DNA of 56,439 nucleotides, from positions 1-56,439 of the forward strand of contig JBKOWY010000099.1 in assembly GCA_046724655.1 (NCBI GenBank). The letters are read 5' to 3'. Under the pieces are notes generated by a model. That model saw nothing but the letters and a program-made list of their open reading frames with translations. It had not been told where the DNA came from and ran no database searches. Below, piece by piece: positions 28,196 through 54,979 of the stretch. Source of the DNA: Actinomycetota bacterium. GTDB lineage: Bacteria > Actinomycetota > Acidimicrobiia > IMCC26256 > JACDBD01. The position numbers were made by a program, and so were the translations under genes. Position 1 is the stretch's first letter, and every line of letters begins with the position of its first letter.

Positions 28196-28643
28196 CCACC
28201 TCGGGCTCGACCACCACGTCGGTCTCGAGGCTGTTGGCGATGAAGCACTCGCGGTGGCCGACCTCAACGAGGTGGCGAACGCGGTCCACACTCACGTCGC
28301 CGCGCACCGTGATGCGAGGGCGCAGCGTGATCCGGGTGAGGCGCATCAGCTGCTCGTCCTCGGGCATCTCGCCTGCGGCGTCGTCCTGGTAGTCGACGAC
28401 GTCGATACGCGCGCGGGCCGCGACCGCGAGGAACGACAGCAGCTGACACGAAGCCGCCGCCATGACCAGCAGCTGCTCGGGGTTGAGGAGCGCCGCTGTA
28501 CCGCGGAACACCGGATCGCTCGATAGTTGCAGCGTCGCGTCGGCCGGCGGCGCGCGCGACTCGTGCGACCGGTCGTAGGCCTCGTATCCCGCGCCGGTCG
28601 ACCCGTGCCAGGCGCACGAGACGTGGTAGCGGTGGGTGCCGAT
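28185..28643 (-). CDS. OsmC/Ohr family protein
   Basis: HRY.....W.GSTG.GY..YDRSH, SSDPVFRG, NPEQLL..AASC, HRECFIANS; predicted start is ATC. Confidence 0.88.
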   Translation of the reverse strand: MGTHRYHVSCAWHGSTGAGYEAYDRSHESRAPPADATLQLSSDPVFRGTAALLNPEQLLVMAAASCQLLSFLAVAARARIDVVDYQDDAAGEMPEDEQLMRLTRITLRPRITVRGDVSVDRVRHLVEVGHRECFIANSLETDVVVEPEVVRI

Positions 28644-28668
28644 GGATGTGACGCTACTGTCAGGTCCC

Positions 28669-30273
28669 GTGACCGCGCGGCCGCAAACCACGGTGCTCGA
28701 GGCGTTGAGCCGCCGTCTCGATATCGACCCTGACAGTCCGTACCTCGACTTCGAGGGCGTCGAGTACAGCGCCCGGCGCATGGACGCCGAGAGCAACCGG
28801 CTCGCGCACGCGCTCGCCCGGCTCGGTGTCGGGAAGGGTGACCGCGTCGCGACGCTGCTCGAGAACAGCCCCGCACAGGTGGTGTCGTTCTTTGCCGCGC
28901 TCAAGCTCGGCGCCGTGCAGGTGCCGGTCAACACCGCCTACAAGGGCGACTTCCTCCAGCACCAGCTGGCGGACTCGGGCTCGAAGGTCATCGTCGTGCA
29001 GGGCGACTTCGCCGGCCGTGTCGCGCCCGTGGTCGGGACGGATCTCCCGGCGCTCGAGGCCGCGGTCGTCGTCGGGCCTCCCGACGCGGTGATCGACGGC
29101 GTCCCCGCGCACGACTGGGATGAGTTGCTCGGCGCGTCGTCGGACCAACCGGTGCCCGACGCCGGTGTGCGACCTGGCGACCTGGCTTGCTTCATCTACA
29201 CCGCCGGCACGACCGGCCCGTCCAAGGGCTGCATGCTCCCGCACAACTACATCGTGGCGCTGGCCGATCAGATCGCCCGGACGTGGCAACGGCGGCCCGA
29301 CGACGTCGTCATCACGCCGCTGCCGCTGTTCCACTTCAACGCCATCTCGGTGTGCGTGGTGGGGACGCTCGTCGTCGGCGGCAGGGCGAGCATCGCCCGG
29401 CGGTTCTCGCTGTCGCGCTTCTGGTCCGAGGTGCGCCGGACGGGGGCGACGATCGCGTCGATGCTCGGTTCGTTGGCGATCCTCATCGCCGACGCCCAGG
29501 ATCATCCCGACCAGCAGGGGCACCGGTTGCGGCTGTGCGCGGCGGCGCCGATGCCGCCTGACATCGACCGCATCTGGAACGAGCGCTTTGGATGCAAGAC
29601 GTTCAGCGCCGGCTACGGGCTCACCGAGGCGTCGCTGATCTCGATGCTGCCGGCCGGGGAGGCTAACCGGCCCGGCGCGGCGGGCAAGCCGAACGCGCTC
29701 GACTTCGAGGTGCGGCTCGTCGACGACGACGACGTCGAGGTGCCGGTGGGGGAGATCGGCGAGATTGTGTGCCGACCGACGGGCCCGAACCTGATGTTCG
29801 CCGGCTACTGGCGCCGGCCCGAGGAGACCGTCGCCGTGCTGCGCAACCTGTGGTTCCACACCGGCGACCTCGGCCGCCTCGACGAAGAGAGCTTCCTGTA
29901 CTTCCTGGACCGCAAGAAGGACTACCTGCGACGTCGGGGCGAGAACATCTCGAGCTTCGAGATGGAGCGCACGTTCCACGCGCACCCGGCAATCAAGGAC
30001 GTCGCCGTGCACTCGGTGCGGAGCGAGAAGGGGGAGGACGAGGTCAAGGTGACCGCCGTGCTCCAGCCCGACGCCGAGCTGGACGCAGCCGAGCTATGCG
30101 AATGGTCCGCCGAACGGGTCCCGTACTTCGCGATCCCGCGCTACATCGAGTTCCGCGACGACCTGCCCCGCAACCCCGTCGGCCGGGTCCTCAAGTACCA
30201 GCTGCGCGACGAAGGCGTCACCGACGCAACCTGGGACCGAGAAGCGGCGGGCGTCACCTTCGAACGCCGCTGA
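28669..30273 (+). CDS. ATP-dependent acyl-CoA ligase (CaiC-like)
   Basis: YTAGTTGPSKG, GYGLTE, WFHTGDLG, DRKKDYLRRRGENISS. Confidence 0.93.
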   Translation: MTARPQTTVLEALSRRLDIDPDSPYLDFEGVEYSARRMDAESNRLAHALARLGVGKGDRVATLLENSPAQVVSFFAALKLGAVQVPVNTAYKGDFLQHQLADSGSKVIVVQGDFAGRVAPVVGTDLPALEAAVVVGPPDAVIDGVPAHDWDELLGASSDQPVPDAGVRPGDLACFIYTAGTTGPSKGCMLPHNYIVALADQIARTWQRRPDDVVITPLPLFHFNAISVCVVGTLVVGGRASIARRFSLSRFWSEVRRTGATIASMLGSLAILIADAQDHPDQQGHRLRLCAAAPMPPDIDRIWNERFGCKTFSAGYGLTEASLISMLPAGEANRPGAAGKPNALDFEVRLVDDDDVEVPVGEIGEIVCRPTGPNLMFAGYWRRPEETVAVLRNLWFHTGDLGRLDEESFLYFLDRKKDYLRRRGENISSFEMERTFHAHPAIKDVAVHSVRSEKGEDEVKVTAVLQPDAELDAAELCEWSAERVPYFAIPRYIEFRDDLPRNPVGRVLKYQLRDEGVTDATWDREAAGVTFERR

Positions 30274-30385
30274 TCAAGCCAGCCATGACGCACGGATCGC
30301 CGGTCTCGACGGCACTGAGCTCGTTGTTATGTGCGATCGGCACCTTCCTCTGCCTCGTGCTCGGTCGCTGACGTCTCCGCAGAAA

Positions 30386-30568
30386 TCAGTATGAGATGGT
30401 GCCGTTGTCGTTGACCGTTGCGGTCGCATCGGGGTTGGCCTGCGAGCCGGTGAACGTGTCTTTGCCAGTCGCACCTCGGAATGCGCCAGTCCCACCCGTG
30501 AACGTCAGTTCGCCGTTCTGTATCACGCTGGAGTCGGACTGCAGCATTGCCTTACCTCCGCCGACCGA
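30386..30568 (-). pseudogene. C-terminal remnant of a beta-rich (probably secreted) protein
   Basis: GKAMLQSDSSVIQNGELTFTGGTGAFRGATGKDTFTGS...GTISY* immediately after an in-frame TAA; N-terminus absent. Confidence 0.5.
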
Positions 30569-30771
30569 TTACGCAGGGCTCGACGCCGCTGCCAGCCGGG
30601 TACCGAACGCGTTGCTCGAAGACGGTACGGCGCGGCGGTGGCCGTCCTCGATAAGAACACAGAACGTCGAACCAGAATGACGCTCGGGACGGCCGGTCAG
30701 CACGTACATAGCGCACATCTGGTTTGTCCACAGAGAGCAGGGCGTTGGCCGGCACATGGAAAAATGCACAG

Positions 30772-31189: not shown

Positions 31190-31807
31190 ATGCCCGATAC
31201 ACCTGACGAGCTCGCCGACGTTCCTCCGGAAGAGTTCGTCGCCGCCCGGGACGAGCTGGCGAAGCGGCTGAAGGCCGAGGGCAACGCGGAAGAGGCCGCC
31301 GCTGTCAAGAAGTTGCGCAAGCCCACTGTGGCGCGGTGGGTCACCGAGCAGGTGCGCCGTCGTCATACCCGCGAGGTCGACGCGCTCCGGGAGGCGTCGG
31401 CCGACGTGGCACAGGCCCAAGAAGCCGCCGTCACCAGGGGCGACCGCGACGCGTTGCGCGATGCGACGGCAAAACGGCGGACCGCCGCAGAGGCGGTGGG
31501 CCGAGCGGTTGACGAGGTCCTTGCCAGCAGCGGACGTCCGGTTCAGTACCGCGACGAAGCGGTGAGCGCCATCGAGTCGGACGTCAACGCCGACATCGCG
31601 ACGGGCACGTTCGGTCTTCGAGACGACCTGGAGCTCCCGAAGCGGCCGAAGAAAAAAGCACCGACGCGGGACCTCGCAGCGGAACGCCGTGCCGCCCAGG
31701 CCGAGAAGGCGATCGAAGCGGCCGAGGACCGAGTTCGTCTTGCACGCCACGAGTTGGCCAACGCCGAGTCGGATCTGGCGGCGCTGCGGGACCGCTACGG
31801 ACGCTGA
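31190..31807 (+). CDS. Conserved actinobacterial-type helical hypothetical protein
   Basis: PPEEFVAARDELAK.L...A..VKKLRKPT.A.W motif and C-terminal coiled coil; RBS ggag. Confidence 0.8.
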   Translation: MPDTPDELADVPPEEFVAARDELAKRLKAEGNAEEAAAVKKLRKPTVARWVTEQVRRRHTREVDALREASADVAQAQEAAVTRGDRDALRDATAKRRTAAEAVGRAVDEVLASSGRPVQYRDEAVSAIESDVNADIATGTFGLRDDLELPKRPKKKAPTRDLAAERRAAQAEKAIEAAEDRVRLARHELANAESDLAALRDRYGR

Positions 31808-32589
31808 CCCCAGAAGAGAATGCGCTTGAACGTGTAGAGGTACGGGCGGCGTTCGCCGATCACCTCCAGCAACCGCCGCCGGTAGCGCTCCAAGAAGACG
31901 TCGTAGAGCTCGTCCGAGAGTCGGGCGCGAAAGAACGTGAGATGGGTGCCCTTGACCCACTCGACGACGTCGGCCGACGACGCGAGGTGGTGGGGGTACA
32001 CCTGGAGGCGGACAAGCTGCTCACCGAAGCCGAGCTGGTCGAGGAGCTCCGTGTACGCCTCCGGTGCGAGGACCCGTGTCGCCGGATCAGGCGGAGGATC
32101 GTGGGCGAGCGCTTCGACGAACGGCGACTCTTGCGCGACGTCCATCCCGACGGTGTGCGAGGGGTGGTCGGTGTTGGCCGGGACCTGGACGGCGAGCTGT
32201 CCGCCCGCAGGTAATGCCGCTGTAAGCCGAGTCAGCAGCCGGCCGTGATCCGGAAGCCAGTGCAGGGCCGCGTTCGAGAACACGAGGTCGTACGGCTCGG
32301 GCTCCCACGTGGCGATGTCACCCTGCTCGAAGCGAACGCCGTCTCCCGCAAACGGCTTCGCCCGTTCCAGCATGCTCGCCGAGCTGTCGATGCCGATTGT
32401 CTCCGACGCGCCGAGATGGCGGTGCAGCTCTTTGGTGAGCTCGCCGGTGCCGCAGCCCAGATCGACGATCCGACCTTCGTGCAGGGGCTGCACGAGCGCC
32501 ACGAGATCCCAGAACGGGCGGGACCGTTCCGCCTTGAAGCGTTCGTACTGGTCCGGGTCCCACTGGGTCACGCTTGGCGCATCGGCCAT
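31795..32589 (-). CDS. tam: Trans-aconitate 2-methyltransferase-like SAM methyltransferase
   Basis: WDPDQY..F..ERSRPF.DL, DLGCGTG, SNAALHW, LAVQVP, WVKGT.L. Confidence 0.85.
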   Translation of the reverse strand: MADAPSVTQWDPDQYERFKAERSRPFWDLVALVQPLHEGRIVDLGCGTGELTKELHRHLGASETIGIDSSASMLERAKPFAGDGVRFEQGDIATWEPEPYDLVFSNAALHWLPDHGRLLTRLTAALPAGGQLAVQVPANTDHPSHTVGMDVAQESPFVEALAHDPPPDPATRVLAPEAYTELLDQLGFGEQLVRLQVYPHHLASSADVVEWVKGTHLTFFRARLSDELYDVFLERYRRRLLEVIGERRPYLYTFKRILFWGQRP

Positions 32590-32595
32590 ATGGCG

Positions 32596-33624
32596 TCAGC
32601 CGCGATCGAGGACGAGCTTAGTCGCCGGCTCCAGCCACGCTTCGGCGGCCTGCTCCCAGGGCACGACGGTCGTGGGCACTATGAGGGGATCGAGTCGGCC
32701 GTGCGCGACGAGCTCGAGAACTGGCGGGAGGAGCAAACGCGAGTCCGCCCTCGAGGTGTGGAACGTTACGCCATTGGTGTACATGTCGAGGAGCGGTATC
32801 GGTGTCGTTCTCTCGAAATAGATGGCGACACTGGTGCAGGTCCCGTAGTCGTCCGTCGAGCGCAAGGTTGCCGCGAGCCCTGCGTCGTCACCGGTGGCAT
32901 CAACCGTGATCAGCGCGCGGTCGAACCGGCGGGGCCACGGCCCCTGATGATGCTCGACGTCGGCCCCTAGGGCTTCCGCGGCCGCGCAGCGGGCGAGATC
33001 GGTATCGACGTAGCGGACGTGTTCCGAGCCGAGGGCGATTGCGGCGGCGGCTGCGTACAAGGCGATTGACACGGCCGCACCCCCGACGACGAGGACTTCC
33101 GCGCCGGGCCGGGCGGACAGCTGGGGGCCGACGGCGCGATAACCGTCCACGACGTTGTCCGGCAACGTGCTCAGCATCGTGGCCGGTAGTTCTTTCGGGC
33201 TTGGCAAGAGCATGTGATCTGCAGCGGGCACGGCAAGCAAGTCCGCGACCGCGCCGCCGTGCCCCCCTCCTACTTCACCGAAGCCGAACGCGGCCCCGAT
33301 CTGCGCGCGGTAGGTGTGGCATGCGGCAAAGCGTCCTTGGCGACAGGCCTCGCACACGCCGCACGACACCTGGAACGGGACGAGTACCCGTTCACCGATC
33401 CTGCGCTCCGACACCGCGTCCCCGACGGCGACGATCTCGGCGACGGTCTCGTGACCAACCGGGAAGGGCCCGGGAAACAAGCCGCCTGCGGCCATCGGCA
33501 GATCAACGTCGCAGCGGGCGACGGCGAGTGGGCGCACGATCGCCCCGGCCGGATCCGACGGGTCCGGCTCCGGGGCGTCACGCCACTCGACACGACCGGC
33601 GTCGACGAACGTCAGCTGGCGAAT
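32596..33624 (-). CDS. Zinc-dependent alcohol dehydrogenase family protein
   Basis: RQLTF...RVEW, RCD, GHE, CGVCEAC..C; predicted ATT start after GGAGG. Confidence 0.88.
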   Translation of the reverse strand: MRQLTFVDAGRVEWRDAPEPDPSDPAGAIVRPLAVARCDVDLPMAAGGLFPGPFPVGHETVAEIVAVGDAVSERRIGERVLVPFQVSCGVCEACRQGRFAACHTYRAQIGAAFGFGEVGGGHGGAVADLLAVPAADHMLLPSPKELPATMLSTLPDNVVDGYRAVGPQLSARPGAEVLVVGGAAVSIALYAAAAAIALGSEHVRYVDTDLARCAAAEALGADVEHHQGPWPRRFDRALITVDATGDDAGLAATLRSTDDYGTCTSVAIYFERTTPIPLLDMYTNGVTFHTSRADSRLLLPPVLELVAHGRLDPLIVPTTVVPWEQAAEAWLEPATKLVLDRG

Positions 33625-34376
33625 TTTCGTGCCCTCCAGATCTGCTCGGCGGGCCACCGGCGGGCCCAATCGTCGGGAACGAAGTCGTCGTAGGTCGTCG
33701 TGGCGCCGTCGGGCGGGCGCATCTCGATCAGGTCTTCGACCACGAACCCGTGGTCGCGCAGCAGGCGTATCCACTCGCCGTGCGGCAGCTCGAAGTCCAT
33801 GGTGCCCTCACCGAAATACATGCGCCCAAGGTCCCAGTAGGACCGGTGCAGCCGCGTGTCCTGGCGCTGACGACGCTCGTCCCACGTCAGGTACACGAGC
33901 GGCGTCGACTGGCAGAACGCGAGCAGGCCGTCGGTACGAAGCAGGCGCGCCACTTCGGGCACCGTCACCTTGGGATCACAAAAGCTCATCGCGCCGTGGT
34001 CGCAGAACACCACGTCGAACGATGCGTCGCGGAACGGTGTCGCCTCCGCGCTGGCGGCCACGAAGGGCAGTGCGACACGCGCCGCGTCGCGGTTCGCACA
34101 CGCATGCTTGAGCTGGACGAGCGACTGGTCGAGGCCGACGGGTAATGCACCTTCGCCCGCGAGTGCGATGGACCACTGGCCGGCGCCGCAACCGAGCTCG
34201 AGCATGTCGAGGCCGTCGACGTCGCCGAGCACACCCAGTTCGGACTCGGGAATTCGCCACGCCCCCCACGCCCGCGCTCTGGCGGTGAGGTCGTCGCCGT
34301 GCTGGGCCTGGTAGTCGTCGGCGTCGGCGTCCCAGAACTCGCGGTTGTGGCGCTCGTGCTGCTCGGCGCCGCTCAC
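33612..34376 (-). CDS. Class I SAM-dependent methyltransferase
   Basis: NREFWD, LELGCGAGQWS, FDVVFCDHGA; GTGA-coupled to upstream gene. Confidence 0.9.
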   Translation of the reverse strand: MSGAEQHERHNREFWDADADDYQAQHGDDLTARARAWGAWRIPESELGVLGDVDGLDMLELGCGAGQWSIALAGEGALPVGLDQSLVQLKHACANRDAARVALPFVAASAEATPFRDASFDVVFCDHGAMSFCDPKVTVPEVARLLRTDGLLAFCQSTPLVYLTWDERRQRQDTRLHRSYWDLGRMYFGEGTMDFELPHGEWIRLLRDHGFVVEDLIEMRPPDGATTTYDDFVPDDWARRWPAEQIWRARKFAS

Positions 34377-34777
34377 GCAGAGTCGATGAGCTTTTCGCGC
34401 GCTTCTTTCTGCTTCTGTCGCTGCTTCTTCCACTCCTTGAGAAGCGCCTTGTGCCCGGCCTTGGCCGCCTTGCCCGCGGCCTGGAGGTTTGCATCGATCT
34501 CATCGGCGAGGTTCGAGAACGCGTCGCCGATGCTGTCGAGGCCCTCCTCGAACTGCTTGGCCGTGCTCTTCCAGGCATCGCCGGATTTCTCGGCCGCCCG
34601 ATCGAGGCGGACCTTGAGCTCTGCTTGGCGCTTGCGCAGCACGTCGATCGCCTTCTCGAACCGCTCACGAGCCTCGGCGCCGGCCAGGTCGGCCTGCACC
34701 CTCAATTCGTCGATCTGCTGCTGAAGCTTCTCGAGCGCCTCCCGGGCCTTCGCTCGGTATTCGTCCTGGGTGGCCAT
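34373..34777 (-). CDS. Coiled-coil hypothetical protein
   Basis: IDELRVQADLA.AEARE pattern; RBS gaggag. Confidence 0.8.
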   Translation of the reverse strand: MATQDEYRAKAREALEKLQQQIDELRVQADLAGAEARERFEKAIDVLRKRQAELKVRLDRAAEKSGDAWKSTAKQFEEGLDSIGDAFSNLADEIDANLQAAGKAAKAGHKALLKEWKKQRQKQKEAREKLIDSA

Positions 34778-37871: not shown

Positions 37872-38918
37872 CTATTCGCCGACGGACAGGCCGCCCCAGG
37901 CCACGACCGGCCCGGCGGCGTCGACGAGCGCGCGCGTGAGGGAGGCGTCGACGGGCACGTCCAGGATCGACACGCCGGGCTCACGCGTCGCCGCTTCGAG
38001 GTGCTCGAGGTGGTCGGCGGCGACGCGCACCGGGCCTCCTTCGCTCCACACGTCGACGACGAGCGCGGCGCCGAGCTCGGTGGCGAGCTCGAGCAGGGTC
38101 AGCGTCGCGTGGTGGAGCGGCTCGGTGGTCACTGCCACGGCGGCAAAGCCGCGCCGCGAGGCGACGAGTGCGAGCGCGGTGGCGAGACCAGGCGTGGCGA
38201 CGGCGGGGACGACGACCGTCCCCGGCTCGGTCGTCGGGAACGTGCGCGCCACCCACAGACCGGCCAGGCCGGGATCGGCCGTGATCACCCCACGCGGCGG
38301 AAGTGCGGCGCGGAGGTCGCCGACCGCGCGCGCGGGGTGCAGTGGCACGCGGTCATCGACGTATCCCGGCTGCGCGATTGCTGACAGGCGCCGGTAGAGC
38401 TCCGTCATGGGCATCGGCTCCGTCGCCGGCGCGATAGAGGCGGCGAGGCGCCCCAGCTGCTGAGGCGCGACCTCGACGACCGGCGCGAGAGCGACCCGTT
38501 CGGAAGGAGACTCGACAAAGTCGGTTCCGGTGGCGACGATCGCGTCGTAACGCGCGAAGTCGAGCAGCTCGAAGTCGCGCGCTTGCAGCCCGCACGTTCC
38601 CATGTGCTGCGGACTGTCCCACGGGAGAACACCCTTGGCGCCCCACGTGTTCGCGACAGGGACGTTGGCGGCGTCCGCGAAAGCACGGAGCGCCTCGATG
38701 CTTCTCGTGGCGACGACTCCAGGGCCGGCGAGCACGACGAAGCGACCGGCCGGGAGGTCCGCCGTCTGCACGCGGTCGCGTGCGTCGTCCGGTTCAGGGT
38801 CCAAGCCGAGCGAATACGCCAGCGCGGCCGGCACTTCGATGTGGTCGAAAGCCTCGGCGATCGGTTCGACGTCGGTACCTGTGGCCGCCGCACGCACTAG
38901 AAGGCCGACCGTTTCCAC
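37872..38918 (-). CDS. Degenerate thiamine-diphosphate-enzyme-like protein (central and C-terminal domains only)
   Basis: VVLAGPGV, PVANTWGAKGV.PWDSP.H.G, PLHPAR, ITADPG...WVAR; no GDG motif and no Pyr domain. Confidence 0.7.
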   Translation of the reverse strand: METVGLLVRAAATGTDVEPIAEAFDHIEVPAALAYSLGLDPEPDDARDRVQTADLPAGRFVVLAGPGVVATRSIEALRAFADAANVPVANTWGAKGVLPWDSPQHMGTCGLQARDFELLDFARYDAIVATGTDFVESPSERVALAPVVEVAPQQLGRLAASIAPATEPMPMTELYRRLSAIAQPGYVDDRVPLHPARAVGDLRAALPPRGVITADPGLAGLWVARTFPTTEPGTVVVPAVATPGLATALALVASRRGFAAVAVTTEPLHHATLTLLELATELGAALVVDVWSEGGPVRVAADHLEHLEAATREPGVSILDVPVDASLTRALVDAAGPVVAWGGLSVGE

Positions 38919-38971
38919 GCCGCCATCGTCCCACGGGGGTGAAAGTTGGCGGCAGATACAGTCACTCCGCC

Positions 38972-39679
38972 ATGCCCCACCGCAACCTCTATCTCCACGA
39001 GCTGATCGACATCGTCGGTGAGGGCGCGATGCGCTACATGGACCACACGGCCGGGTTCAACGCCGAAGCGGCGGCCGACCGTGGTCTCGAGCTCGTCGGC
39101 ACCTGGTACACGATGGGCTCCACGGGCCGGTGGCCGCAGGTCGTGAACCTGTGGGAGAGCGTCGAGGGATGGTCAGGGTGGCACCGGCTCATGGAGGCGA
39201 CGAACCTACGCCGAACCCGGAACCCGGAGCTCGTCGAGTGGTGGCAAGAAGCGCTGAAGACGCGCACCGGGGGATTCGACCGGCTGCTCGGCGCCGCGCC
39301 CGGTTGCCCGTCGCTCGCCGAGCTGCGCGCGAGCGGCGTGACGGGCTCGGTGTTCGTGCACGAGATCTCGGAGGTGCGCCCGGGCGACGCCCTGAACTAT
39401 CTCGCATCGGTGCGGGAGCTTCGGGCACCGATCCTGGCCGACCACGGCCACAGCCTCGTCGGTCTGTACGAGGTGCTGCTGACCGACGTCGAAGTGGTGA
39501 CGGTCTGGGCGACTGACCCGGCCGGGCACGAGTCGCTGATGCGTGCTGCCGACGAGCGGACCGACGACCGCATCGCCCGCTGGCACGAACAGGCGCGCGC
39601 CGCCGGTCGCACTCGCTGGCGCGAGGAGCTCATGACTCCGCACCCCGACACCCTGCTGTCGCGCGGCGACTCACTGTGA
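38972..39679 (+). CDS. NIPSNAP-like dimeric alpha/beta barrel protein
   Basis: Two repeats (LYLHE..I / VFVHE..EV), G.W.T.GSTGRWPQVVNLWE. Confidence 0.8.
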   Translation: MPHRNLYLHELIDIVGEGAMRYMDHTAGFNAEAAADRGLELVGTWYTMGSTGRWPQVVNLWESVEGWSGWHRLMEATNLRRTRNPELVEWWQEALKTRTGGFDRLLGAAPGCPSLAELRASGVTGSVFVHEISEVRPGDALNYLASVRELRAPILADHGHSLVGLYEVLLTDVEVVTVWATDPAGHESLMRAADERTDDRIARWHEQARAAGRTRWREELMTPHPDTLLSRGDSL

Positions 39680-40932: not shown

Positions 40933-40946
40933 CGGACCGTCAGGTC
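40926..40946. promoter_or_regulatory. Perfect palindrome gacctgacgg-a-ccgtcaggtc upstream of TetR gene
   Basis: 10-bp arms; same CTGAC-N5-GTCAG core as 23278 and 1951. Confidence 0.6.
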
Positions 40947-41041
40947 GAGCGCTACCGACGGGTAGCCTGACAGGCCGCGGCGAGCGGCGGCTTGGCCGAC
41001 CGCCGCCGCAAAGCCGGAGCTTGCGACGGCGAAGGAGGAAA

Positions 41042-41707
41042 ATGAGCTCGTCGCCGACGACCGCGGCCACGACCGAGTCGGCGGTAGCGCTCGACGGTCG
41101 GCCCCTGGGAAAACGGGGTGCTGCGACTCGCCGGCGCCTGGTCGAAGCAACCGCGCAGCTGCTCGAGAGCCAGGGTGTACGCGATCTTCGGGTTGTCGAC
41201 ATCGCCCGGGTGGTCGGCACTTCTCCGGCGACCTTCTACCAGTACTTCCGTGACGTCGAGGAGGCGGTGCTGGCACTGACCGCGGAGGTCGGGGAGGAGC
41301 TGGCGCCCGTCGACGAGCTCCTGCGCCGGTCGTGGACGGGCCCCTCGGGACTCGACGCCGCTCGGGAGATGGTCGACGCGTTCATTCGTTACTGGGACGA
41401 GCACCGGGCCGTGCTCCGTACCCGCAACCTCGCCGCCCAGGAAGGCGACCCGCGCTTCCGGCACGTCCGCAACGACTCGCTGCGGCCGCTCACCGATCAT
41501 CTCGCCGCCGCGGTCGCCGACTCGCAGGCGGCGGGGCGTGTCAGCACCGAGATCGCGCCGATGGCGGCGGCGGCAGCGCTCGTCGCGCTGCTCGAGCGCA
41601 TGGCCGCCTTCCACCGTGACCTGGAGACACTCGGCATCACCCGCGCCGACGTGGTCGAGACGACAGCCCGCATCGTGCACCAGACCGTGACCGGCGGGAA
41701 GGACTAG
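41042..41707 (+). CDS. TetR family transcriptional regulator
   Basis: TRRRLVEAT..LL...G...LRVVDIAR.VGTSPATFYQYF; RBS aaggagg. Confidence 0.95.
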   Translation: MSSSPTTAATTESAVALDGRPLGKRGAATRRRLVEATAQLLESQGVRDLRVVDIARVVGTSPATFYQYFRDVEEAVLALTAEVGEELAPVDELLRRSWTGPSGLDAAREMVDAFIRYWDEHRAVLRTRNLAAQEGDPRFRHVRNDSLRPLTDHLAAAVADSQAAGRVSTEIAPMAAAAALVALLERMAAFHRDLETLGITRADVVETTARIVHQTVTGGKD

Positions 41708-41709
41708 GG

Positions 41710-42255
41710 ATCACGCCTTCCCTCGACATCGTCTTTCTCTGCACCGGCAACGCGGCCCGCTCGGTGATGGCAGGCGCGTTCCTCGAGAACCGAGTGCCGG
41801 GCCTGCGCGTCACGACGGCGGGGACGCACGTCGTCGAAGGCATGCCGATGAGCTGGCGCACGCGCGACGCGATTGCGGAGTTCGGCGCGGAACGCACCAT
41901 GCACCGCAGCCATCAGCTCAACGACGCCGACGTCACCTCCGCAGATGTCGTGATCTGCATGGCCGCGGAGCACGTCGCTTACATGCGGCGCATCCACCCC
42001 GAGGCCGCCGCGAAGACGGTCACGCTCCGGCGGCTGGTCCGCGACCTCCCTTCCGCGCCCGGCGCGACCTTCCGTGAGCGCATCGCGTCGCTGGGTCTCG
42101 CCGACGTCGAGCTCGAACCGGCGGAGGACGTCGAGGACCCCGCTGGAGGCGACCTGCCGGTTTTCCGCGCCTGCGCGCGCGAGATCCACGACCTGATCGA
42201 CCTGCTCGTCCCCGAGCTCGGGGACAGAGCCACGCGCGACGAGGAGATCGCGTAG
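41710..42255 (+). CDS. Low-molecular-weight protein-tyrosine phosphatase / ArsC-like protein
   Basis: IVFLCTGNAARS P-loop upstream of the ORF-track start, TAGT, ADVVICM, DVEDP.G; predicted ATC start. Confidence 0.88.
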   Translation: MTPSLDIVFLCTGNAARSVMAGAFLENRVPGLRVTTAGTHVVEGMPMSWRTRDAIAEFGAERTMHRSHQLNDADVTSADVVICMAAEHVAYMRRIHPEAAAKTVTLRRLVRDLPSAPGATFRERIASLGLADVELEPAEDVEDPAGGDLPVFRACAREIHDLIDLLVPELGDRATRDEEIA

Positions 42256-42258
42256 CGA

Positions 42259-43818: not shown

Positions 43819-43865
43819 TACGGCCGACTGTAACGGCGTTACCCGCCCAGAGTTACGATCTCCGC

Positions 43866-45338
43866 ATGAGCGAACTGATGGCTGAGCAACGGATGCTGAT
43901 CGACGGCAAGCTCTTCGAGGCGGCGTCGGGAGCCACGTACGGCAACATCAACCCGGCCACCGAAGACGTCGCGGGCGAGGTGGCCGACGGGGGCGCCGAG
44001 GACATGGACCGGGCGATCGACGCCGCTCGTCGTGCGTTCGATGACACCGACTGGGCGGGGAATCCGGCGTTCCGGAAGCGATGCCTGCGGCAGCTGAAGG
44101 ACGCGCTCGACAAGGAGAAGGAGACGCTCCGGCCGCAGATCGTGACCGAGGTCGGCGCGCCGATCATGCTCACGTACGCCGTGCAGCAGGACTCCTGCAT
44201 CGAGGACATGCAGTGGGAGATCGATCTCATCGACCGGTACGACTGGGAGCAGGAGCTCCCGGTCCATGAGTTCATGGGCATGCGCAGCTCACGCAAGGTC
44301 GTGCGCGAGCCGGTGGGCGTGGTCGGCGCGATCACCCCGTGGAACTTCCCCTTCATGCTCAACCTGTCGAAGATCACGCCTGCGCTGGCGGCCGGCAACA
44401 CCGTCGTCCTCAAGCCCGCGCCCGATACACCCTGGAGCGCGACGTTCATCGGTCGCGTCGCCGCCGAGCAGACAGACATCCCGGCGGGTGTGCTCAACAT
44501 CGTCACGTCGAGTGATCCGGCGACGGTAGGCGAGGTACTGGCCAACGACCCGCGCGTCGACATGATCAGCTTCACCGGCTCCACCGCCACGGGGCGCCGC
44601 ATTATGGCCAACGGGGCTCAGACGCTAAAGAAGGTGTTCCTCGAGCTCGGCGGCAAGTCCGCAAACGTGATCCTCGACGACGCCGACCTCGCGTCGACTG
44701 TCCCGTCCGGGTCCATGGTGTGCATGCATGGCGGGCAGGGCTGCGCGATCACGACACGGATGTTGCTGCCGAAGTCGCGTTACGACGAGGCGGTCGACAT
44801 GCTCAAGGCCGCGTTCGAGGCCGTCCCGTACGGCGACCCGACCGATCCCGGCAACATCATGGGGCCCCTGATCAACGCCCGGCAGCGCGACCGCGTGCTC
44901 GGCTACATCGAAAAGGGCAAGGCCGAGGGAGCCAAGCTGCTCGTCGGCGGCGGCCGTCCACGGCATCTCGAGAAGGGCTACTACGTCGAACCGACGCTGT
45001 TCGTGGATGTCGACCCCGACGCGACGATCGCCCAGGAGGAGATCTTCGGGCCCGTGCTGTGCGTCCTGAAGTACGAGAACGACGACGACGCCGTCCGCAT
45101 CGCCAACAACTCCATGTACGGGCTGTCCGGCGCCGTGACGAGCGCGTCGATCGACCGAGCCGAGGCCGTCGCCCGGCGCATCCGCACCGGCACGGTCGCC
45201 GTGAACGGCGGCCTGTGGTTTGGTCCGGATTCGCCGTTCGGTGGGTACCGTCAGAGTGGCAACGGACGCGAGCACGGAATCGAAGGATTCGAGGAGTACC
45301 TCGAGACGAAGACGCTGGGATTCCCCGCCCCGGCGTAG
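43866..45338 (+). CDS. Aldehyde dehydrogenase
   Basis: PWNFP, FTGS, LELGGK, GQGC, EEIFGP. Confidence 0.96.
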   Translation: MSELMAEQRMLIDGKLFEAASGATYGNINPATEDVAGEVADGGAEDMDRAIDAARRAFDDTDWAGNPAFRKRCLRQLKDALDKEKETLRPQIVTEVGAPIMLTYAVQQDSCIEDMQWEIDLIDRYDWEQELPVHEFMGMRSSRKVVREPVGVVGAITPWNFPFMLNLSKITPALAAGNTVVLKPAPDTPWSATFIGRVAAEQTDIPAGVLNIVTSSDPATVGEVLANDPRVDMISFTGSTATGRRIMANGAQTLKKVFLELGGKSANVILDDADLASTVPSGSMVCMHGGQGCAITTRMLLPKSRYDEAVDMLKAAFEAVPYGDPTDPGNIMGPLINARQRDRVLGYIEKGKAEGAKLLVGGGRPRHLEKGYYVEPTLFVDVDPDATIAQEEIFGPVLCVLKYENDDDAVRIANNSMYGLSGAVTSASIDRAEAVARRIRTGTVAVNGGLWFGPDSPFGGYRQSGNGREHGIEGFEEYLETKTLGFPAPA

Positions 45339-45348
45339 GAGGAACGAC

Positions 45349-46131
45349 GTGACAACGAACGAGATCGAGACGCTCATGCAGGGAACGAACTACCTGCCGA
45401 AGTTCGAGACCGTCGAGGAGGATCGCCTGCACCGCAAGCAGCGGCTGGCGGCGGCGTTCCGGCTCTTCGGGCGGTTCGGGTTCGACGAGGGTGTCGCCGG
45501 CCACATCACGGCCCGGGACCCCGAGCGCCTCGACCACTTCTGGGTGAACCCGTTCGGCATGAACTTCAGCCACATCCGCGTATCCGACCTGATCCTCGTG
45601 GACGACAAGGGCGAGGTCGTCGAGGGTGAGTACGGCGTGAACACGGCGGCGTTCGTCATCCACTCGCAGGTGCACGCCGCCCGCCCAGACGTGATCGCTG
45701 CTGCGCACGCGCACTCGATCTACGGCAAGTCGTGGTCAGCTCTGGGCCGGCTGCTCGACCCGATCACCCAGGACGTGTGTGCCTTCTACGAGGACCACGC
45801 GCTCTTCGACGACTACACCGGCGTCGTGCTCGACCTCGAAGAAGGCAAGCGTCTCGCCCACGCGCTCGGCGACAAGAAGTCGGTCATCCTCCGGAACCAC
45901 GGCCTGCTCACGGTCGGTCACTCGGTCGACGAGGCAGCGTGGTGGTTCATCACGATGGAGCGGTCGTGCCAAGCGCAGCTGCTCGCGCAAGCGGCCGGCG
46001 ACCCCGTGCTGATCGAACCCGACATGGCGAAGCTCACCGCGTCGCAGGTGGGCTCGCACGCGGCAGGGTACTTCAGCTTCCAGCCTCTCTACGACAAGAT
46101 CGTCCGCGACCAACCGGACCTGCTCGAGTAA
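45349..46131 (+). CDS. Class II aldolase/adducin family protein
   Basis: EGVAGHITARDP, AAFVIHS, AAAHAHS, ILRNHG; RBS aggagg. Confidence 0.93.
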   Translation: MTTNEIETLMQGTNYLPKFETVEEDRLHRKQRLAAAFRLFGRFGFDEGVAGHITARDPERLDHFWVNPFGMNFSHIRVSDLILVDDKGEVVEGEYGVNTAAFVIHSQVHAARPDVIAAAHAHSIYGKSWSALGRLLDPITQDVCAFYEDHALFDDYTGVVLDLEEGKRLAHALGDKKSVILRNHGLLTVGHSVDEAAWWFITMERSCQAQLLAQAAGDPVLIEPDMAKLTASQVGSHAAGYFSFQPLYDKIVRDQPDLLE

Positions 46132-46183
46132 CGCGCATGGGCAGGCGTGACTACGAGAACGAAGCTCGCGCGGAGGAAGCCGA

Positions 46184-46978
46184 CTAGCTCCCGGCGCGGC
46201 GGCTCCGCAGGTATTCGATCGAGCCCTGCAGGAACCTGTCGGGGTCGGCGACCTTGCCGGCGACGATGTCTTGGAACCACTCCGGCACGTAGATCTCCAA
46301 CGTGCCCGAGTCGAGCTGGTTCACGACGGGCTGCACGACGGCGTCGACAGGGAGCGCCATGCTCATGTCGGCGATGGGCTCGTCGTTGTCGGGCAACCGG
46401 AACAGCTCGGTGTCGATGATGCCCGGGTTCACGACGTGGACCTTCACGCCGGTGTCGGCGAGGTCGACGGCCATCGCTTCGGAGAACGCGGTCAGCGCCG
46501 CCTTGGAGGCGGCGTAGGCGGCCTCCGTCCCAGGCCCGAGCCGCGCTGCGACCGACGAGATGTTCACGATCCGTCCGTCTCGATCGGTCAGGCCAGGCAG
46601 TAGCGCGAGCGTCAGGCGTACGGGCGACAAGTAGTTGAGCGCCATCACCGACTCGACGACGTCGGGCGTCAACTGCGTGACGGCGCGGCGCTTAGGGACA
46701 CCGGCGTTGTTCACCAGCACGTCGATCCCGCCCAGCTCGTCGACGGCGAGGCGCGCGAACGGCTCAATCCCGTCGAGTTCAGACAGGTCGATCACCCAGG
46801 ACCGTGACTCGGGCGAGTGTTGACGGACGCGTTCGAGCACGTCACGCAGACGGTCTTCACGCCGCGCGCAGATCCCGACGATCGCGCCGCGTTCGGCAAA
46901 GCCCTCGGCAAGCGCCGCGCCGATGCCCGACGACGCTCCGGTGATCAAGACCTTCCTGTTTGCAAGCGAGTAGCTCGT
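46184..46978 (-). CDS. SDR family oxidoreductase
   Basis: TGASSGIG, NNAG, YAASK; start ACG 46978 (leaderless) or TTG 46948. Confidence 0.9.
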   Translation of the reverse strand, partial: TSYSLANRKVLITGASSGIGAALAEGFAERGAIVGICARREDRLRDVLERVRQHSPESRSWVIDLSELDGIEPFARLAVDELGGIDVLVNNAGVPKRRAVTQLTPDVVESVMALNYLSPVRLTLALLPGLTDRDGRIVNISSVAARLGPGTEAAYAASKAALTAFSEAMAVDLADTGVKVHVVNPGIIDTELFRLPDNDEPIADMSMALPVDAVVQPVVNQLDSGTLEIYVPEWFQDIVAGKVADPDRFLQGSIEYLRSRRAGS

Positions 46979-47014
46979 GCCGGGCAGCTTAGGAGGGCGG
47001 TAGCCTGCGCCGCC

Positions 47015-47794
47015 GTGCCGCTCGAACCGTCCGCCGCGCTCTTGACGGATCGCGTCGCGGTCGTCACCGGCGCGGCCGTCGGCATCGGTGAAGCGATCGC
47101 GCTCGGCTTCGCCAACTTCGGCGCCCACCTCGCGATCTGTGACCGAGACGTTCCCAATCTCGACCAGACCGCAGACGCGATCGAAGCCATCGGGCGGCGC
47201 GTCGTCGCCGCGGAGCTCGACGTGCGTGAGGCCGATCAGGTCGACGGCTTCCTCGGTGTCGTGGGAGAGCAATTCGGGCGCGTCGACGTCCTCGTGAACA
47301 ACGCCGGAGGCGGTTTTCAGGCGGCGTTCCTCGAGGTGAACGCCAAGGGCCAGGACTCGCTGATACGCGAGAACTTCGTGAGCGTCACGCATTTCATCCG
47401 GAGTGCCGTCCCGCTGATGGTTGACGCCGGCGGCTCGATCGTCAACCTCACTTCGATCGAGGCCCATCGCGCCGCGCCCGGCTACGCGGTGTACGCGTCG
47501 ATGAAGGCCGCCGTCGCGAACCTCACCAAGACACTGGCGCTCGAGCTGGGTGACCGCATGATCCGGGTCAATTGCATCGCTCCCGACGTGATTCCCACAC
47601 CCGGCATCGGCGCAGACCTCCCGATGAACACACCGTTGCCTCGTCGCGGTGACGTGGACGACGTCGCTGCCGCGGCCGTCTACCTGGCCAGTGACCTCGG
47701 CCGGTTCGTTTCCGGTACCACGATCCACGTCGATGGCGGCAACTTTGCCGCCGGTGGATGGCGCCGCGCCGACGACGGAAGCTTCACGACGTGA
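47015..47794 (+). CDS. SDR family oxidoreductase
   Basis: TGAAVGIG, NNAGG, YASMK; GTG 8 nt after tagcct. Confidence 0.92.
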   Translation: MPLEPSAALLTDRVAVVTGAAVGIGEAIALGFANFGAHLAICDRDVPNLDQTADAIEAIGRRVVAAELDVREADQVDGFLGVVGEQFGRVDVLVNNAGGGFQAAFLEVNAKGQDSLIRENFVSVTHFIRSAVPLMVDAGGSIVNLTSIEAHRAAPGYAVYASMKAAVANLTKTLALELGDRMIRVNCIAPDVIPTPGIGADLPMNTPLPRRGDVDDVAAAAVYLASDLGRFVSGTTIHVDGGNFAAGGWRRADDGSFTT

Positions 47795-48642
47795 AGTTCG
47801 GGATCGCCCTTGGCGCGCTCAACGCCCATTTCCACTTCGACGTCACGGACGAGGCCGAGCGCCTCGGCTACGAGTCGGTCTGGCTGCCCGAGCACCTCGT
47901 GCTTCCCGTGCGGATGAGCCGGTCGCCGCATCCGGGGGAGGAGCACCCGCCCGTGCCGCCGACGACACCCGTGTTCGACGCCTTCACGTATCTCGGCTAC
48001 CTCGCGGGCCGCACCAGCCATGTGCGGCTGGGAACGCACGTGTACAACATCGGGCTCCGCCATCCGTTCATCGCCGCGCGCGCCGTGCAGACTCTCGACG
48101 TCGTGTCCGGCGGACGGGTCGAGTTCGGCGTGGGCGCGAGCTGGCTCGAAGAGGAGTGGCGCGCCGTCGAACTCGATTTCGAGTCCCGGGGGCGCCGTGT
48201 CGACGAGGCCCTCGAGGTGTGCAAGCGGCTGTGGAGCGAGCCCGAGGTCGCCCACCAAGGGGAGTTCTTTCGGTTCGACGCGGTCGCCTTCGAGCCCAAG
48301 CCGGTCCAGCAACCGTGGCCGCCGATCCTGATCGGCGGAGAAAGCCCCGCCGCGCTGCGACGCGCCGCTCGCCTCGGTGATGGCTGGGTCGGCATGGGCC
48401 ACACGCTCGAGACCGCCGGCGCACAGATCACGCGTCTGCGCGAGCTGCGTGGCGAGTACGGGCGCGATGACGCGTCATTCGAGATCTGCCTCGGCGGCGC
48501 GATCGAGACCGCCGACGACGTGAAGCGGTGGGAGGAGATCGGAGTGACGCGGCTCATCGTGTCGCCGTGGCGCCGGTCGCCCGAGGCGATCGACGGCATG
48601 CGTCGCTTTGCCGACCTCGTGGGGCTCGAGCCGCGCGGCTAG
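47791..48642 (+). CDS. LLM class, probable F420-dependent oxidoreductase
   Basis: ESVWLPEH, TLDVVSGGRV..GVG..W..EE, PKPVQ, ILIGG. Confidence 0.92.
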   Translation: MKFGIALGALNAHFHFDVTDEAERLGYESVWLPEHLVLPVRMSRSPHPGEEHPPVPPTTPVFDAFTYLGYLAGRTSHVRLGTHVYNIGLRHPFIAARAVQTLDVVSGGRVEFGVGASWLEEEWRAVELDFESRGRRVDEALEVCKRLWSEPEVAHQGEFFRFDAVAFEPKPVQQPWPPILIGGESPAALRRAARLGDGWVGMGHTLETAGAQITRLRELRGEYGRDDASFEICLGGAIETADDVKRWEEIGVTRLIVSPWRRSPEAIDGMRRFADLVGLEPRG

Positions 48643-53121: not shown

Positions 53122-53129
53122 ACGCAGCC

Positions 53130-53176
53130 TTCTTGCGTCAGCTAGGCCCGTTATGGGTGCCTATTTGACGCAAGAA
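53130..53176. repeat. REP-like palindrome between convergent genes
   Basis: ttcttgcgtca...tgacgcaagaa 11-bp arms; contains the SDR stop codon. Confidence 0.7.
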
Positions 53177-54047
53177 CACTCGGATCGACCGGAAAGCCGA
53201 CGGAAGCCAGGAGCCGCTCGCTCTCGTCCCACAGGCGATCGGCGGCCGCGTCGTCGCGCGCCGCCCTGCTCATGTGGCCGGGGCGGCGGCGCACCCAGTA
53301 GCCACCCGTGACGCCGTCGAGTGACGGCTCGGAGGCCAGGTGGATCGACGTGCGCGCACCCCTCTTCGCGCTGATCTCGAACAGCCGAAAGATCTTGTTG
53401 CCGAACCCGAGGAAACCTTTCATGTCGCCGTCCATGCCGAACCCACTGCGAACGGCTCCCGGGTGTAGAGCGTTGGCGGTCACCTGCTGCGGTTCGAGGC
53501 GACGAGCCAAACCGCGCGTGAAGAGAACGTTGGCCAGCTTGGATTGGGAATACGCTCGCATCGCTGTGTAGCCGCGCTTGGTCTGCAGGTCATGCCACCG
53601 CATCCCTCGCATCCGCACGTGGTGACCGACCGACGCCACGTTGATTATGCGCGCCGGCGCGGAGGCCTTGAGGCGGTCGAGAAGCAGCGTGGTCAGGTAG
53701 AAGTGGCCGAGGTGATTGACGCCGAAGGTCTGCTCGAAACCCTGTGCGGTCATGCGCCGCTTCGTCCACATCCCGCCCGCGTTGTTGATCAACACGTCGA
53801 GGCGCGGCCAGACCTTGCTGATTTCCTCGGCGCACGCTCGGACGCTGGCAAGGTCGGCGAGATCGAGCCTGACGACGTGCACGTTCTCGCTCCCAGAGCG
53901 AGCCTTTACCTCGGCGGCGGCGACGATGGCCTTCTCCTGGTTGCGGCAGACCAGCACCACGGTGGCGCCCATCGAAGACAGCGCAACCGCGGTCTCCTTG
54001 CCGATGCCGACGTTCGATCCGGTGATGACGACGACCTTGCCGTCCAT
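53151..54047 (-). CDS. SDR, retinol dehydrogenase/WWOX-like
   Basis: TGSNVGIG, NNAG, VNHLGHF, YSQSKLAN, HPG.V. Confidence 0.93.
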   Translation of the reverse strand: MDGKVVVITGSNVGIGKETAVALSSMGATVVLVCRNQEKAIVAAAEVKARSGSENVHVVRLDLADLASVRACAEEISKVWPRLDVLINNAGGMWTKRRMTAQGFEQTFGVNHLGHFYLTTLLLDRLKASAPARIINVASVGHHVRMRGMRWHDLQTKRGYTAMRAYSQSKLANVLFTRGLARRLEPQQVTANALHPGAVRSGFGMDGDMKGFLGFGNKIFRLFEISAKRGARTSIHLASEPSLDGVTGGYWVRRRPGHMSRAARDDAAADRLWDESERLLASVGFPVDPSVLASNRHP

Positions 54048-54979
54048 CAGCCCGAAAGCGGGGTTCCGTCTCGGCGCACACCGGCAACGCGCCGCCACGG
54101 ACGCGGGATGCGTCCTCGCTTGATGACGCCGGCGTCGATCAGCGCGTTGAGGACGGCACCGGCGCACTGACGGCGGAGCTCGATGCGCCGCGGCAGGCGG
54201 CGAACCTTGCGCCAGGTTCGGAATGAAGGCAGCCCGACCGTCGCGTAGACGAACGGCTGCACCATGAAGTCGAACATGCCGACGATGCCGAACGGCACGA
54301 TCCTGCGGACCGCGAAGCGATCCGTCCAGGTGGCATTCCGGTAGTGCTCGCCCACTGTGGTGCGCGCGAAGGCGAGGTGACGGGCTTCCTCCATGCGGTG
54401 GTAGCGGCTGACGTCGCGCACGTAGTCGTCGGTATCGGGGTGCTCGGCGGCGAGCTTCTGGAAGAGATCGGGGATCTCCTCGCCCGCGAGCACGAAGGCG
54501 TCGAGCGTGGCCGGGCGGCGCATCAGCAACGGGAGCATGCGCGAGCGGATGCGAGCAGCGAGGGGGCTCTCGAACGGGTTGTGTTGCTTCGGCTCGAGCT
54601 GGTCGACGAGTCGCACGAACAGGCGGGAGTGACGTGTCTCCTCGCCGAGCTCGTGGAGCGCGTAGGTGAAGCGTGGGTCGGTGACGTCGGTGCTGAGCGC
54701 GAGCTGGTAGCCGAAGCCGGAAAGGAGGATTGCCTCGAAGAGGATCCCGAACCGCACGATGGAGGCCATCTCCTCCCGGGCCAGGGTGGCCCGCTGCTCG
54801 GGGGTGAGATCGAGGTCGAGCCCGTCGATCGAGAGCAGCTCGTCCGGGATCACCTGCTGCTTGGTCAGGGTGCCGGTGACCTCTTCGTCGGGCTCGATGA
54901 TCCGGCGCAGCGACGCCCGGTTGAGCTGCTCGATCCGCTTCGTGTTGCCGGTCTCGGGCCGGGTCTCGGTCGCAGTGAT
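54047..54979 (-). CDS. AurF-like diiron oxygenase
   Basis: FE..L, EETRH, GEE..D, EEARH ligand pattern; predicted ATC start after AGGAAGGA. Confidence 0.9.
   Translation of the reverse strand: MTATETRPETGNTKRIEQLNRASLRRIIEPDEEVTGTLTKQQVIPDELLSIDGLDLDLTPEQRATLAREEMASIVRFGILFEAILLSGFGYQLALSTDVTDPRFTYALHELGEETRHSRLFVRLVDQLEPKQHNPFESPLAARIRSRMLPLLMRRPATLDAFVLAGEEIPDLFQKLAAEHPDTDDYVRDVSRYHRMEEARHLAFARTTVGEHYRNATWTDRFAVRRIVPFGIVGMFDFMVQPFVYATVGLPSFRTWRKVRRLPRRIELRRQCAGAVLNALIDAGVIKRGRIPRPWRRVAGVRRDGTPLSG

Follow-up and report, generated by a model that had tools for sequence, protein, structure and literature searches.

The window analysed here, a stretch of 56,439 nucleotides (nt) with a G+C content of ~69%, is contig C103 of the 3.04-Mb metagenome-assembled genome of an uncultured soil actinobacterium of the Acidimicrobiia (G000; 202 contigs, 84% complete). 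It carries five accessory genes whose expected start codon is one base away from ATG: an OsmC-family gene, a Zn-dependent alcohol dehydrogenase (Zn-ADH) gene, a low-molecular-weight phosphotyrosine phosphatase (LMW-PTP) gene, a short-chain dehydrogenase (SDR) gene, and a gene for an AurF-like di-iron oxygenase. An earlier note, made from the letters of the window, had placed ATC, ATT, ATC, ACG, and ATC at these sites, and the five codons are found exactly there (Table 1). The gene identities it proposed also hold, with Pfam matches to OsmC, ADH_N, LMWPc, adh_short, and AurF that all exceed the gathering cut-off (57.8, 64.3, 69.5, 173.6, and 142.9 bits against cut-offs of 27.5, 23.5, 23.2, 26.6, and 29.6, respectively). 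All five frames are intact for 152–342 codons, with no frameshifts or stops seen.

The initiation signals described ahead of the five codons are present near the spacings claimed, although only some of them are signals for the ribosome. Shine–Dalgarno-like runs lie 5–7 nt upstream in three genes, namely GGAGGG (Zn-ADH), GGGAAGGA (LMW-PTP), and AGGAAGGA (AurF-like). The sequences ahead of the OsmC and SDR codons, TAGCGT and TAAGCT, are −10-type hexamers (TANNNT) and not ribosome-binding sites.

Table 1. Positions in the window of the five genes with near-cognate starts, their upstream signals, and adjacent genes.
Feature	Position	Strand	Details
OsmC-family gene	28185..28643	−	152 codons from ATC 28643-28641; Pfam OsmC 1.5e-15
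−10-like hexamer TAGCGT, 7 nt before ATC 28643	28651..28656	−	read from sequence
Divergent acyl-CoA synthetase gene, consensus start GTG 28669	28669..30273	+	Pfam AMP-binding 2.5e-78
Zn-ADH gene	32596..33624	−	342 codons from ATT 33624-33622; Pfam ADH_N 1.4e-17
Shine–Dalgarno-like GGAGGG, 7 nt before ATT	33632..33637	−	within conserved flank; relatives GGAAGG there
TetR-family regulator gene, TAG stop 41705-41707	41042..41707	+	Pfam TetR_C_38 3.3e-33 and TetR_N
Shine–Dalgarno-like GGGAAGGA, 6 nt before ATC 41710	41696..41703	+	read from sequence
LMW-PTP gene	41710..42255	+	181 codons from ATC; Pfam LMWPc 4.5e-19
SDR gene	46184..46978	−	264 codons from ACG 46978-46976; Pfam adh_short 4.2e-51
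−10-like hexamer TAAGCT, 7 nt before ACG	46986..46991	−	read from sequence
Divergent second SDR gene, start GTG 47015	47015..47794	+	GTG in 7/7 relatives; Pfam adh_short_C2 5.4e-58
AurF-like di-iron oxygenase gene	54047..54979	−	310 codons from ATC 54979-54977; Pfam AurF 1.4e-41
Shine–Dalgarno-like AGGAAGGA, 5 nt before ATC	54985..54992	−	read from sequence

The start regions of the five genes were compared by protein search across 41 related genomes; the genus is represented by 19 genomes, all of them sampled. Four genomes (G012, G020, G021, and G022) are unpublished; G021 and G022 supply two rows of the SDR tree, and G012 is the sole partner for sharing of the OsmC start and contributes in part to the sharing seen in LMW-PTP and to the grouping by IF3. 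Five genomes with syntenic loci (G001, G002, G004, G009, and G013; loci L098–L112) are assembled in very few contigs with a completeness of only 60–75%, and in them many orthologous frames are interrupted, with short stop-to-stop pieces and single-base gaps, which looks like the indel errors of long-read assemblies. Part of the region 38000–47900 is also listed for 20 runs labelled as soil or sediment metagenomes, with no RNA runs among them.

Orthologue start regions put the odd codons on the ancestral start or close beside it and do not indicate alternative canonical starts, the outcome that the earlier note had named as a refutation. The canonical start of the relatives lies at the same codon in the Zn-ADH, SDR, and AurF-like genes, two codons upstream in LMW-PTP, and four codons upstream in OsmC. 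The odd start is common to several genomes in three cases: the SDR ACG occurs in four, the loss of the LMW-PTP GTG in three, and the OsmC ATC in two. The five genes arrived at this state by five mutational routes: two are point mutations, one altered a stop codon, one involves an insertion junction, and one deleted ~48 nt. For the two point-mutated starts (AurF-like and SDR), lying one base from ATG is automatic, so near-cognate identity alone is not evidence of use.

An incomplete metagenome-assembled genome in many contigs, with two of the five codons found in it and nowhere else, invites the explanation that the odd codons are assembly or consensus errors. However, three of the five are also present in other species, assembled independently, and are therefore not assembly errors. 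The changes are also of varied types, among them a 1-kb insertion junction and the loss of 48 nt, and no frameshifts or stops were seen in the frames. Error as the general explanation is highly improbable, and the changes at the ancestral start sites of the five accessory genes are best taken as real.

The ATC of the LMW-PTP gene sits 2 nt past the TAG stop of the upstream TetR gene. In five of the eight same-genus loci displayed, the start is a GTG that overlaps the upstream TGA (GTGA) two codons before the ATC. This GTGA is replaced by CTAG in G000, GTAA in G012, and ATAG in G005, where the upstream stops are TAG, TAA, and TAG, and the former GTG codon reads CTA, GTA, and ATA, respectively. 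The ATC two codons on is kept in all three genomes, and the place of GGGAAGGA is taken by GGGAGGGG in G012 and by GGGAAGGG in G005. The overlapping GTG would have been lost when the upstream stop TGA became TAA or TAG through a G-to-A substitution in the GTGA overlap. The open frame, which extends 30 codons upstream in G000 and 55 in G012, contains no ATG, GTG, or TTG before codon +18. The first canonical codon is GTG +18 in G000 (G012 alike), which lies past the catalytic CX5R loop; the P-loop CTGNAARS occupies codons 11–18 (beginning with TGC 41740–41742), and position 1 of the LMWPc profile aligns to residue 7. Near-cognate initiation, either directly on ATC 41710 or by restart after the TAG, appears to be the only route visible to an active LMW-PTP enzyme.

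The same-genus relatives of the SDR gene with canonical starts have TAGGCT-N7-ATG/GTG at the exact codon occupied by ACG, and in G003 the open frame has no canonical codon ahead of the ATG at this position. ACG is the start in G000, G007, G005, and G019, the last belonging to another genus, and these make up 4 of the 18 full-length orthologues on the tree. In this maximum-likelihood tree ACG occurs at three separate places: the G000–G007 pair (support 100/98), G005 within an ATG clade (99/98), and G019 as the outgroup to the genus. A T-to-C point change at the start codon would account for the SDR case. A literature search on ACG start codons, covering titles and abstract openings, found no natural bacterial ACG start described among the papers listed. 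The canonical codons nearby vary among the carriers. A TTG at +10 (46948) with AGGAAGG ahead of it is present in G000; in G007 the 42 open codons upstream of ACG hold no canonical codon and only the TTG +10 is available; and G019 has a TTG at −20, none at +9 or +10, and GAGGGGG 7 nt before ACG. The spacer between the SDR gene and its divergent neighbour, a second SDR gene, is 36 nt long (46979–47014) and carries two −10-like hexamers placed back to back, TAAGCT (minus strand) and TAGCCT (plus strand).

For OsmC, the same-genus starts are GTG or ATG behind TAAGCT-N7, four codons ahead of the ATC position. G000 and G012 have TAGCGT-cacatcc-ATC in common. Their start region is ~48 nt shorter than that of G004 and G006, and both the TAAGCT hexamer and the GTG used as start lay in the part that is absent. 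Promoter and start would thus have been lost together through a ~48-nt deletion. The nearest canonical codons around the ATC are GTG at −16 and +44 in G000, and GTG −39 and ATG +60 in G012; the GTG −16 of G000 is GTC in G012.

The Zn-ADH and AurF-like changes are private to G000. Neither of the two Zn-ADH orthologues, those of G005 and G011 (78–79% identical), carries ATT; both have GTG at the exact codon, and two paralogues (45–46% identity) have TTG at this position. The gene is missing at the syntenic site of G001, G009, G002, and G013, where the alignment ends at 33625–33632 and resumes at 32563–32572. It forms a ~1.06-kb insert (32573–33631) between methyltransferase genes at 33612–34433 and 31795–32589, both on the minus strand. 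The upstream junction of the insert falls at the start codon, homology to the G005 gene starts at codon 2, and the odd start would have come from this junction. The ATT overlaps the 3′ end of the upstream methyltransferase gene by 13 nt and lies 10 nt before its TGA stop. In-frame canonical alternatives are GTG −11 and TTG −15. It is plausible that Zn-ADH is initiated at ATT behind a borrowed Shine–Dalgarno sequence, with GTG −11 as a possible alternative.

At the codon that is ATC in G000, the AurF-like orthologue of G007 (88% identical) has ATG. All eight metagenome loci (73–94% identity), two of which are identical to G007 over the stretch compared, have ATG or GTG at the start or two codons off, and three of the eight have an in-frame stop 1–4 codons upstream, which fixes the start site. 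The ATC is carried by none of the eight other orthologues with a readable start and would reflect a G-to-C point change at the start codon. The other canonical codons are TTG −39 and GTG +42 only, and the Pfam AurF match begins at residue 15 of the product. In this gene and in Zn-ADH, the odd codons may be recent start losses or errors.

Three side observations concern AurF relatives and surroundings. The G007 copy (L076, contig C30) has a match split in two by an internal TGA, and two loci from metagenome or whole-genome shotgun data (L236 and L237) have the same start region as G007 with the AurF match broken at the same residue; this would reflect either a frameshift in the copy or an assembly error common to them. 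The AurF paralogues of the genus (46–51%; loci L083–L097) have a conserved stretch of the type TTGACTCGTCAATTC ~30 nt before ATG that could be a candidate repressor site. A TetR gene at 55126–55725 is divergently oriented to the AurF-like gene of the window.

Selection on the genes was gauged from the ratio of nonsynonymous to synonymous divergence (dN/dS), calculated by the Nei–Gojobori method for G000 against its orthologues. Against same-genus and G019 orthologues, all five genes have dN/dS of 0.11–0.26: OsmC 0.12–0.26 (0.12 and 0.24 on the two G012 pieces), Zn-ADH 0.14–0.16, LMW-PTP 0.15–0.22 (G012 0.17, G005 0.15), SDR 0.11–0.21 (G007 0.136 at a dS of 0.42, G005 0.14, G019 0.21), and AurF-like 0.115–0.13. 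Two distant comparisons were kept out of these ranges, a 45% Zn-ADH paralogue (0.36) and a 56% AurF orthologue (0.49). As background, 27 other genes of the window compared with G009, G001, or G013 have a median of 0.146 (quartiles 0.117/0.146/0.193, range 0.084–0.360). The same measure gives 0.251 for OsmC, 0.209 for LMW-PTP, and 0.143 for SDR, all inside the range of the window. In the three shared cases, species pairs in which both members have the odd start show dN/dS of 0.12–0.24 over a dS of 0.4–0.7. Because most of the path between two carriers postdates the change, the shared genes kept working without a canonical start. These comparisons indicate that the start changes of at least LMW-PTP, SDR, and OsmC predate speciation and that the genes have been under purifying selection since, which means that they must still be translated. 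Such selection is compatible with weak starts of the near-cognate type.

Loss of the start codon could also have silenced the genes, leaving young pseudogenes without other defects yet. This is most plausible for Zn-ADH, where ATT is unique among three orthologues and sits on the insertion junction, and for the AurF-like gene, with its unmatched ATC and the internal TGA and split match of the G007 copy; the dN/dS values of OsmC and LMW-PTP, moreover, fall in the upper quartile of the window. For the five genes together, silencing is nonetheless distinctly unlikely, given that the pairs with two odd starts stay within the range of their neighbours and that all five frames remain intact over their full length.

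The preferred interpretation, with a probability of roughly 0.55, is that the five genes use near-cognate starts at ancestral sites, reflecting a tolerance of weak starts in low-demand genes with no genome-wide loosening of start selection. We infer from the comparisons that initiation takes place on these exact codons at low efficiency. Mechanistically, the initiator tRNA would pair with the near-cognate codon (AUC, ACG, or AUU) at a low rate. Initiation would be aided by a strong Shine–Dalgarno sequence at 5–7 nt in Zn-ADH, AurF-like, and LMW-PTP, and in LMW-PTP and Zn-ADH also by ribosomes that terminate on the upstream gene.

Several points weigh against this interpretation. The sharing of the OsmC start depends on a single further genome, G012, which is unpublished. 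In three LMW-PTP relatives that start with GTG, the ATC is also present as an ordinary Ile codon, and so its conservation is not specific to initiation. The Zn-ADH and AurF-like changes are confined to G000, where dN/dS mixes the time before and after the change. Four of the genes have in-frame canonical codons in the neighbourhood (OsmC GTG −16 in G000, Zn-ADH GTG −11 and TTG −15, SDR TTG +10, AurF TTG −39), and the SDR gene of G005 has an ATG four codons upstream of the ACG. Finally, SDR and OsmC look leaderless, a context in which findings from mycobacteria and Caulobacter disfavour ACG and ATC.

The in-frame codons raise the possibility that translation starts from them and that the near-cognate codons are sense codons or untranslated. 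Such codons exist in G000, the SDR gene of G005 has gained its upstream ATG, and the AGGAAGG ahead of the SDR TTG +10 fits this explanation. The alternatives nevertheless differ between carriers of the same odd start, as with the OsmC GTG that is GTC in G012, the SDR TTG +10 that is absent in G019, and the G007 frame with nothing upstream of ACG. An SDR product begun at TTG +10 would lose most of the first β-strand ahead of TGxxxGIG, and the residues Y, L, K, and V between ACG and TTG are kept in all four carriers with synonymous differences. The 39-residue extension that AurF TTG −39 would add is not conserved in G007, and the upstream stops in three metagenome loci run against it. The LMW-PTP genes of G000 and G012 offer no canonical codon ahead of the catalytic loop. 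Use of canonical in-frame codons is therefore unlikely, and near-cognate initiation is the best common explanation proposed for all carriers of the SDR and OsmC starts.

The density of odd starts in the window had led the earlier note to suggest a lineage with relaxed start-codon selection, and this part of it is not borne out. The five genes stand among 62 candidate open reading frames (ORFs) with coding-type codon-position G+C, several of which overlap or are spurious. Start columns were screened by the onset of codon-position divergence and inspected by eye, with 8 relatives for the window and 12 for a control contig, C93, of the same genome (44 kb, containing infC). Only the five genes were left without a nearby canonical start in the window. 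Thirty-two start positions were tabulated, and three (35402, 37861, and 45376) were left out as mis-assigned; at the other 29, all canonical, every aligned codon of the relatives is ATG, GTG, or TTG, with gaps at 4366. The control contig holds 44 ORFs, of which one is truncated at the end of the contig and two are without cover. Once eight ambiguous cases had been inspected, the 41 evaluable ORFs proved, infC apart, to have a canonical start on a consensus column or beside one. The count of five in the window is therefore informative, unlike the near-cognate identity of a point-mutated start.

The infC gene (C93 ~26069, locus L135) starts at ATA behind AGGGGTGAT in all six same-genus loci in the right orientation, and in other families of the order the start is ATC, ATT, CTG, or ATA. 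A near-cognate infC start kept across the genus is the usual mark of policing by IF3. The C-terminal domain of IF3 is nearly invariant, with few differing positions among 11 sequences from carriers and non-carriers. The IF3 sequences of G000, G007, and G012 form a close group (identities of 98% and 95%) that does not include G005, and they share a distinct patch in the N-terminal domain and linker that is absent in G005. Relatives found through the IF3 of G000 are titled Acidimicrobiia or Actinomycetota metagenome-assembled genomes.

A lineage in which IF3 or the initiator tRNA discriminates weakly should have near-cognate starts throughout its genomes. The local density, five in one 56-kb window, the further cases in the sisters G012, G007, and G005, and the shared IF3 patch all fit such a lineage. 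They are opposed by the control contig, clean apart from infC, by the conserved infC ATA and IF3 C-terminal domain, and by G005, which has two odd starts yet an ordinary IF3 patch. The five separate mutational routes and the two cases specific to G000 speak against it as well. Relaxed selection across the lineage is consequently very unlikely; the phenomenon is locally dense and not genome-wide, and the results support neither recoding nor global relaxation in this lineage.

In the G000 assembly the initiator tRNA was not found: ARAGORN reports two CAT tRNAs, both elongator-like and one of them cut by a contig end, and a short anticodon-arm motif has no match. On the minus strand of contig C2 near 46418 is a tRNA-like stretch, not called by ARAGORN, with a CTCATAA anticodon-loop motif and TTCAAAT as T-loop, which may be a tRNA fragment.

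The leaderless context of SDR and OsmC can be judged against the whole genome. Across 1675 ORF starts of G000, each taken as the first canonical codon no more than 40 codons past the stop upstream, the hexamer TANNNT begins at −12, −13, −14, and −15 in 89, 49, 29, and 34 cases versus ~3 at other offsets, and GGAG/GAGG peaks at −8 to −12. The sharp TANNNT peak 6–9 nt before starts (~200 of the 1675 ORFs) indicates that leaderless genes are frequent in G000. For near-cognate leaderless starts across the genome, however, the background of TANNNT matches to be expected is larger than the plausible signal. The SDR and OsmC hexamers both begin at −13, within the preferred leaderless distance of the genome, and each gene faces its divergent neighbour over a very short spacer. 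A scan for E. coli-type two-hexamer promoters near the two starts gave no match, and none in shuffles either, which makes it uninformative for this phylum. The first codon of the predicted leaderless transcripts is ACG for SDR and ATC for OsmC, not ATG or GTG.

In mycobacteria, a 5′ ATG or GTG is reported to be both required and enough for leaderless translation, ATC being the negative control, and ATT is reported as a robust initiator on leadered mRNAs (PMC4633059). Near-cognate codons are likewise reported to cut leaderless reporter output drastically in Caulobacter (PMC8459731). The two genes resemble the leaderless mRNAs of Actinobacteria in the TANNNT 7 nt upstream and in the ATG or GTG of the SDR orthologues at the site. 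They differ in that the defining 5′ ATG or GTG is replaced by ACG or ATC, which abolishes leaderless translation in mycobacteria. Selection implies that SDR and OsmC are translated, yet the known leaderless rule forbids their predicted 5′ ends, and this is the hard part of the story. It is conceivable, though doubtful, that the clade translates leaderless mRNAs beginning with 5′-ACG or 5′-AUC, breaking the "AUG/GUG only" rule of Actinobacteria. If so, the ATG/ACG swaps at the SDR start would amount to near-neutral exchange of one usable leaderless start codon for another, and the transcripts would be comparable to non-AUG leaderless mRNAs in mitochondria. Editing of ACG to AUG by C-to-U conversion, known from plant organelles, was also considered, and none of the observations bears on it.

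Near-cognate starts are known from other bacteria. In Deinococcus, an ATC start of dnaA, conserved in three species and the closest parallel on record, and a CTG start of rpsL are described as shown by N-terminal proteomics (PMC2830850). As in the genes of the window, the near-cognate codon in that description stands where conservation begins, recurs in several species within a single lineage, and had escaped annotation. The Deinococcus genes are presented as essential and highly expressed with the N-terminal peptide seen, whereas those described here are accessory genes known from their sequence, and one of their start codons is ACG. For E. coli, AUA, AUC, AUU, and CUG are given as 1–2% of AUG and ACG-type codons as 0.1–1%, and infC and pcnB are named as the only two confirmed non-canonical starts (bioRxiv 10.1101/063800). 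These percentages are the efficiencies to be expected for the AUC, AUU, and ACG codons of the window.

The AUU and AUA starts of infC and pcnB offer a likeness in the weak start behind a good Shine–Dalgarno sequence and in low, initiation-factor-dependent expression, and the infC of G000 itself starts with ATA. The difference is that infC and pcnB are autoregulatory and sensed by IF3, whereas the five genes show no sign of a role as translation regulators or of a feedback loop. A further parallel is stop–start coupling of the GTGA/ATGA type. The GTG of LMW-PTP relatives overlaps the TGA of the TetR gene, the stop in G000 is 2 nt before the ATC, and the Zn-ADH ATT lies 10 nt before the stop of its upstream gene; in both genes, the restart codon would be non-NTG.

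Start annotation of uncultured bacteria relies almost wholly on ATG, GTG, and TTG. Genes such as LMW-PTP would be called truncated, without the catalytic loop, or be dropped as pseudogenes. The three shared cases constitute comparative evidence, independent of any single assembly, that non-NTG starts can persist for a long time in ordinary enzyme genes, and the two leaderless-looking cases provide a testable challenge to the 5′ AUG/GUG rule for leaderless translation.

Several candidates were set aside on the way. Flags for odd starts at 43866 and 45349 in the window, and at 11367, 14514, 7948, 19064, 2566, 38683, 42411, and 33025 on C93, proved canonical on inspection. An apparent frameshifted gene at 38602–39679 is two ordinary divergent genes with starts at GTG 38918 (minus strand) and ATG 38972 (plus strand).

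A minor observation concerns the acyl-CoA synthetase gene divergent from OsmC, for which the longest-ORF rule would choose GTG 28636 or ATG 28642. The column of GTG 28669 is GTG or ATG in all four relatives, TACTGT lies 8 nt upstream, and the spacer to OsmC from this codon is 25 nt. The start of the acyl-CoA synthetase is most likely GTG 28669 rather than either of the two upstream codons.

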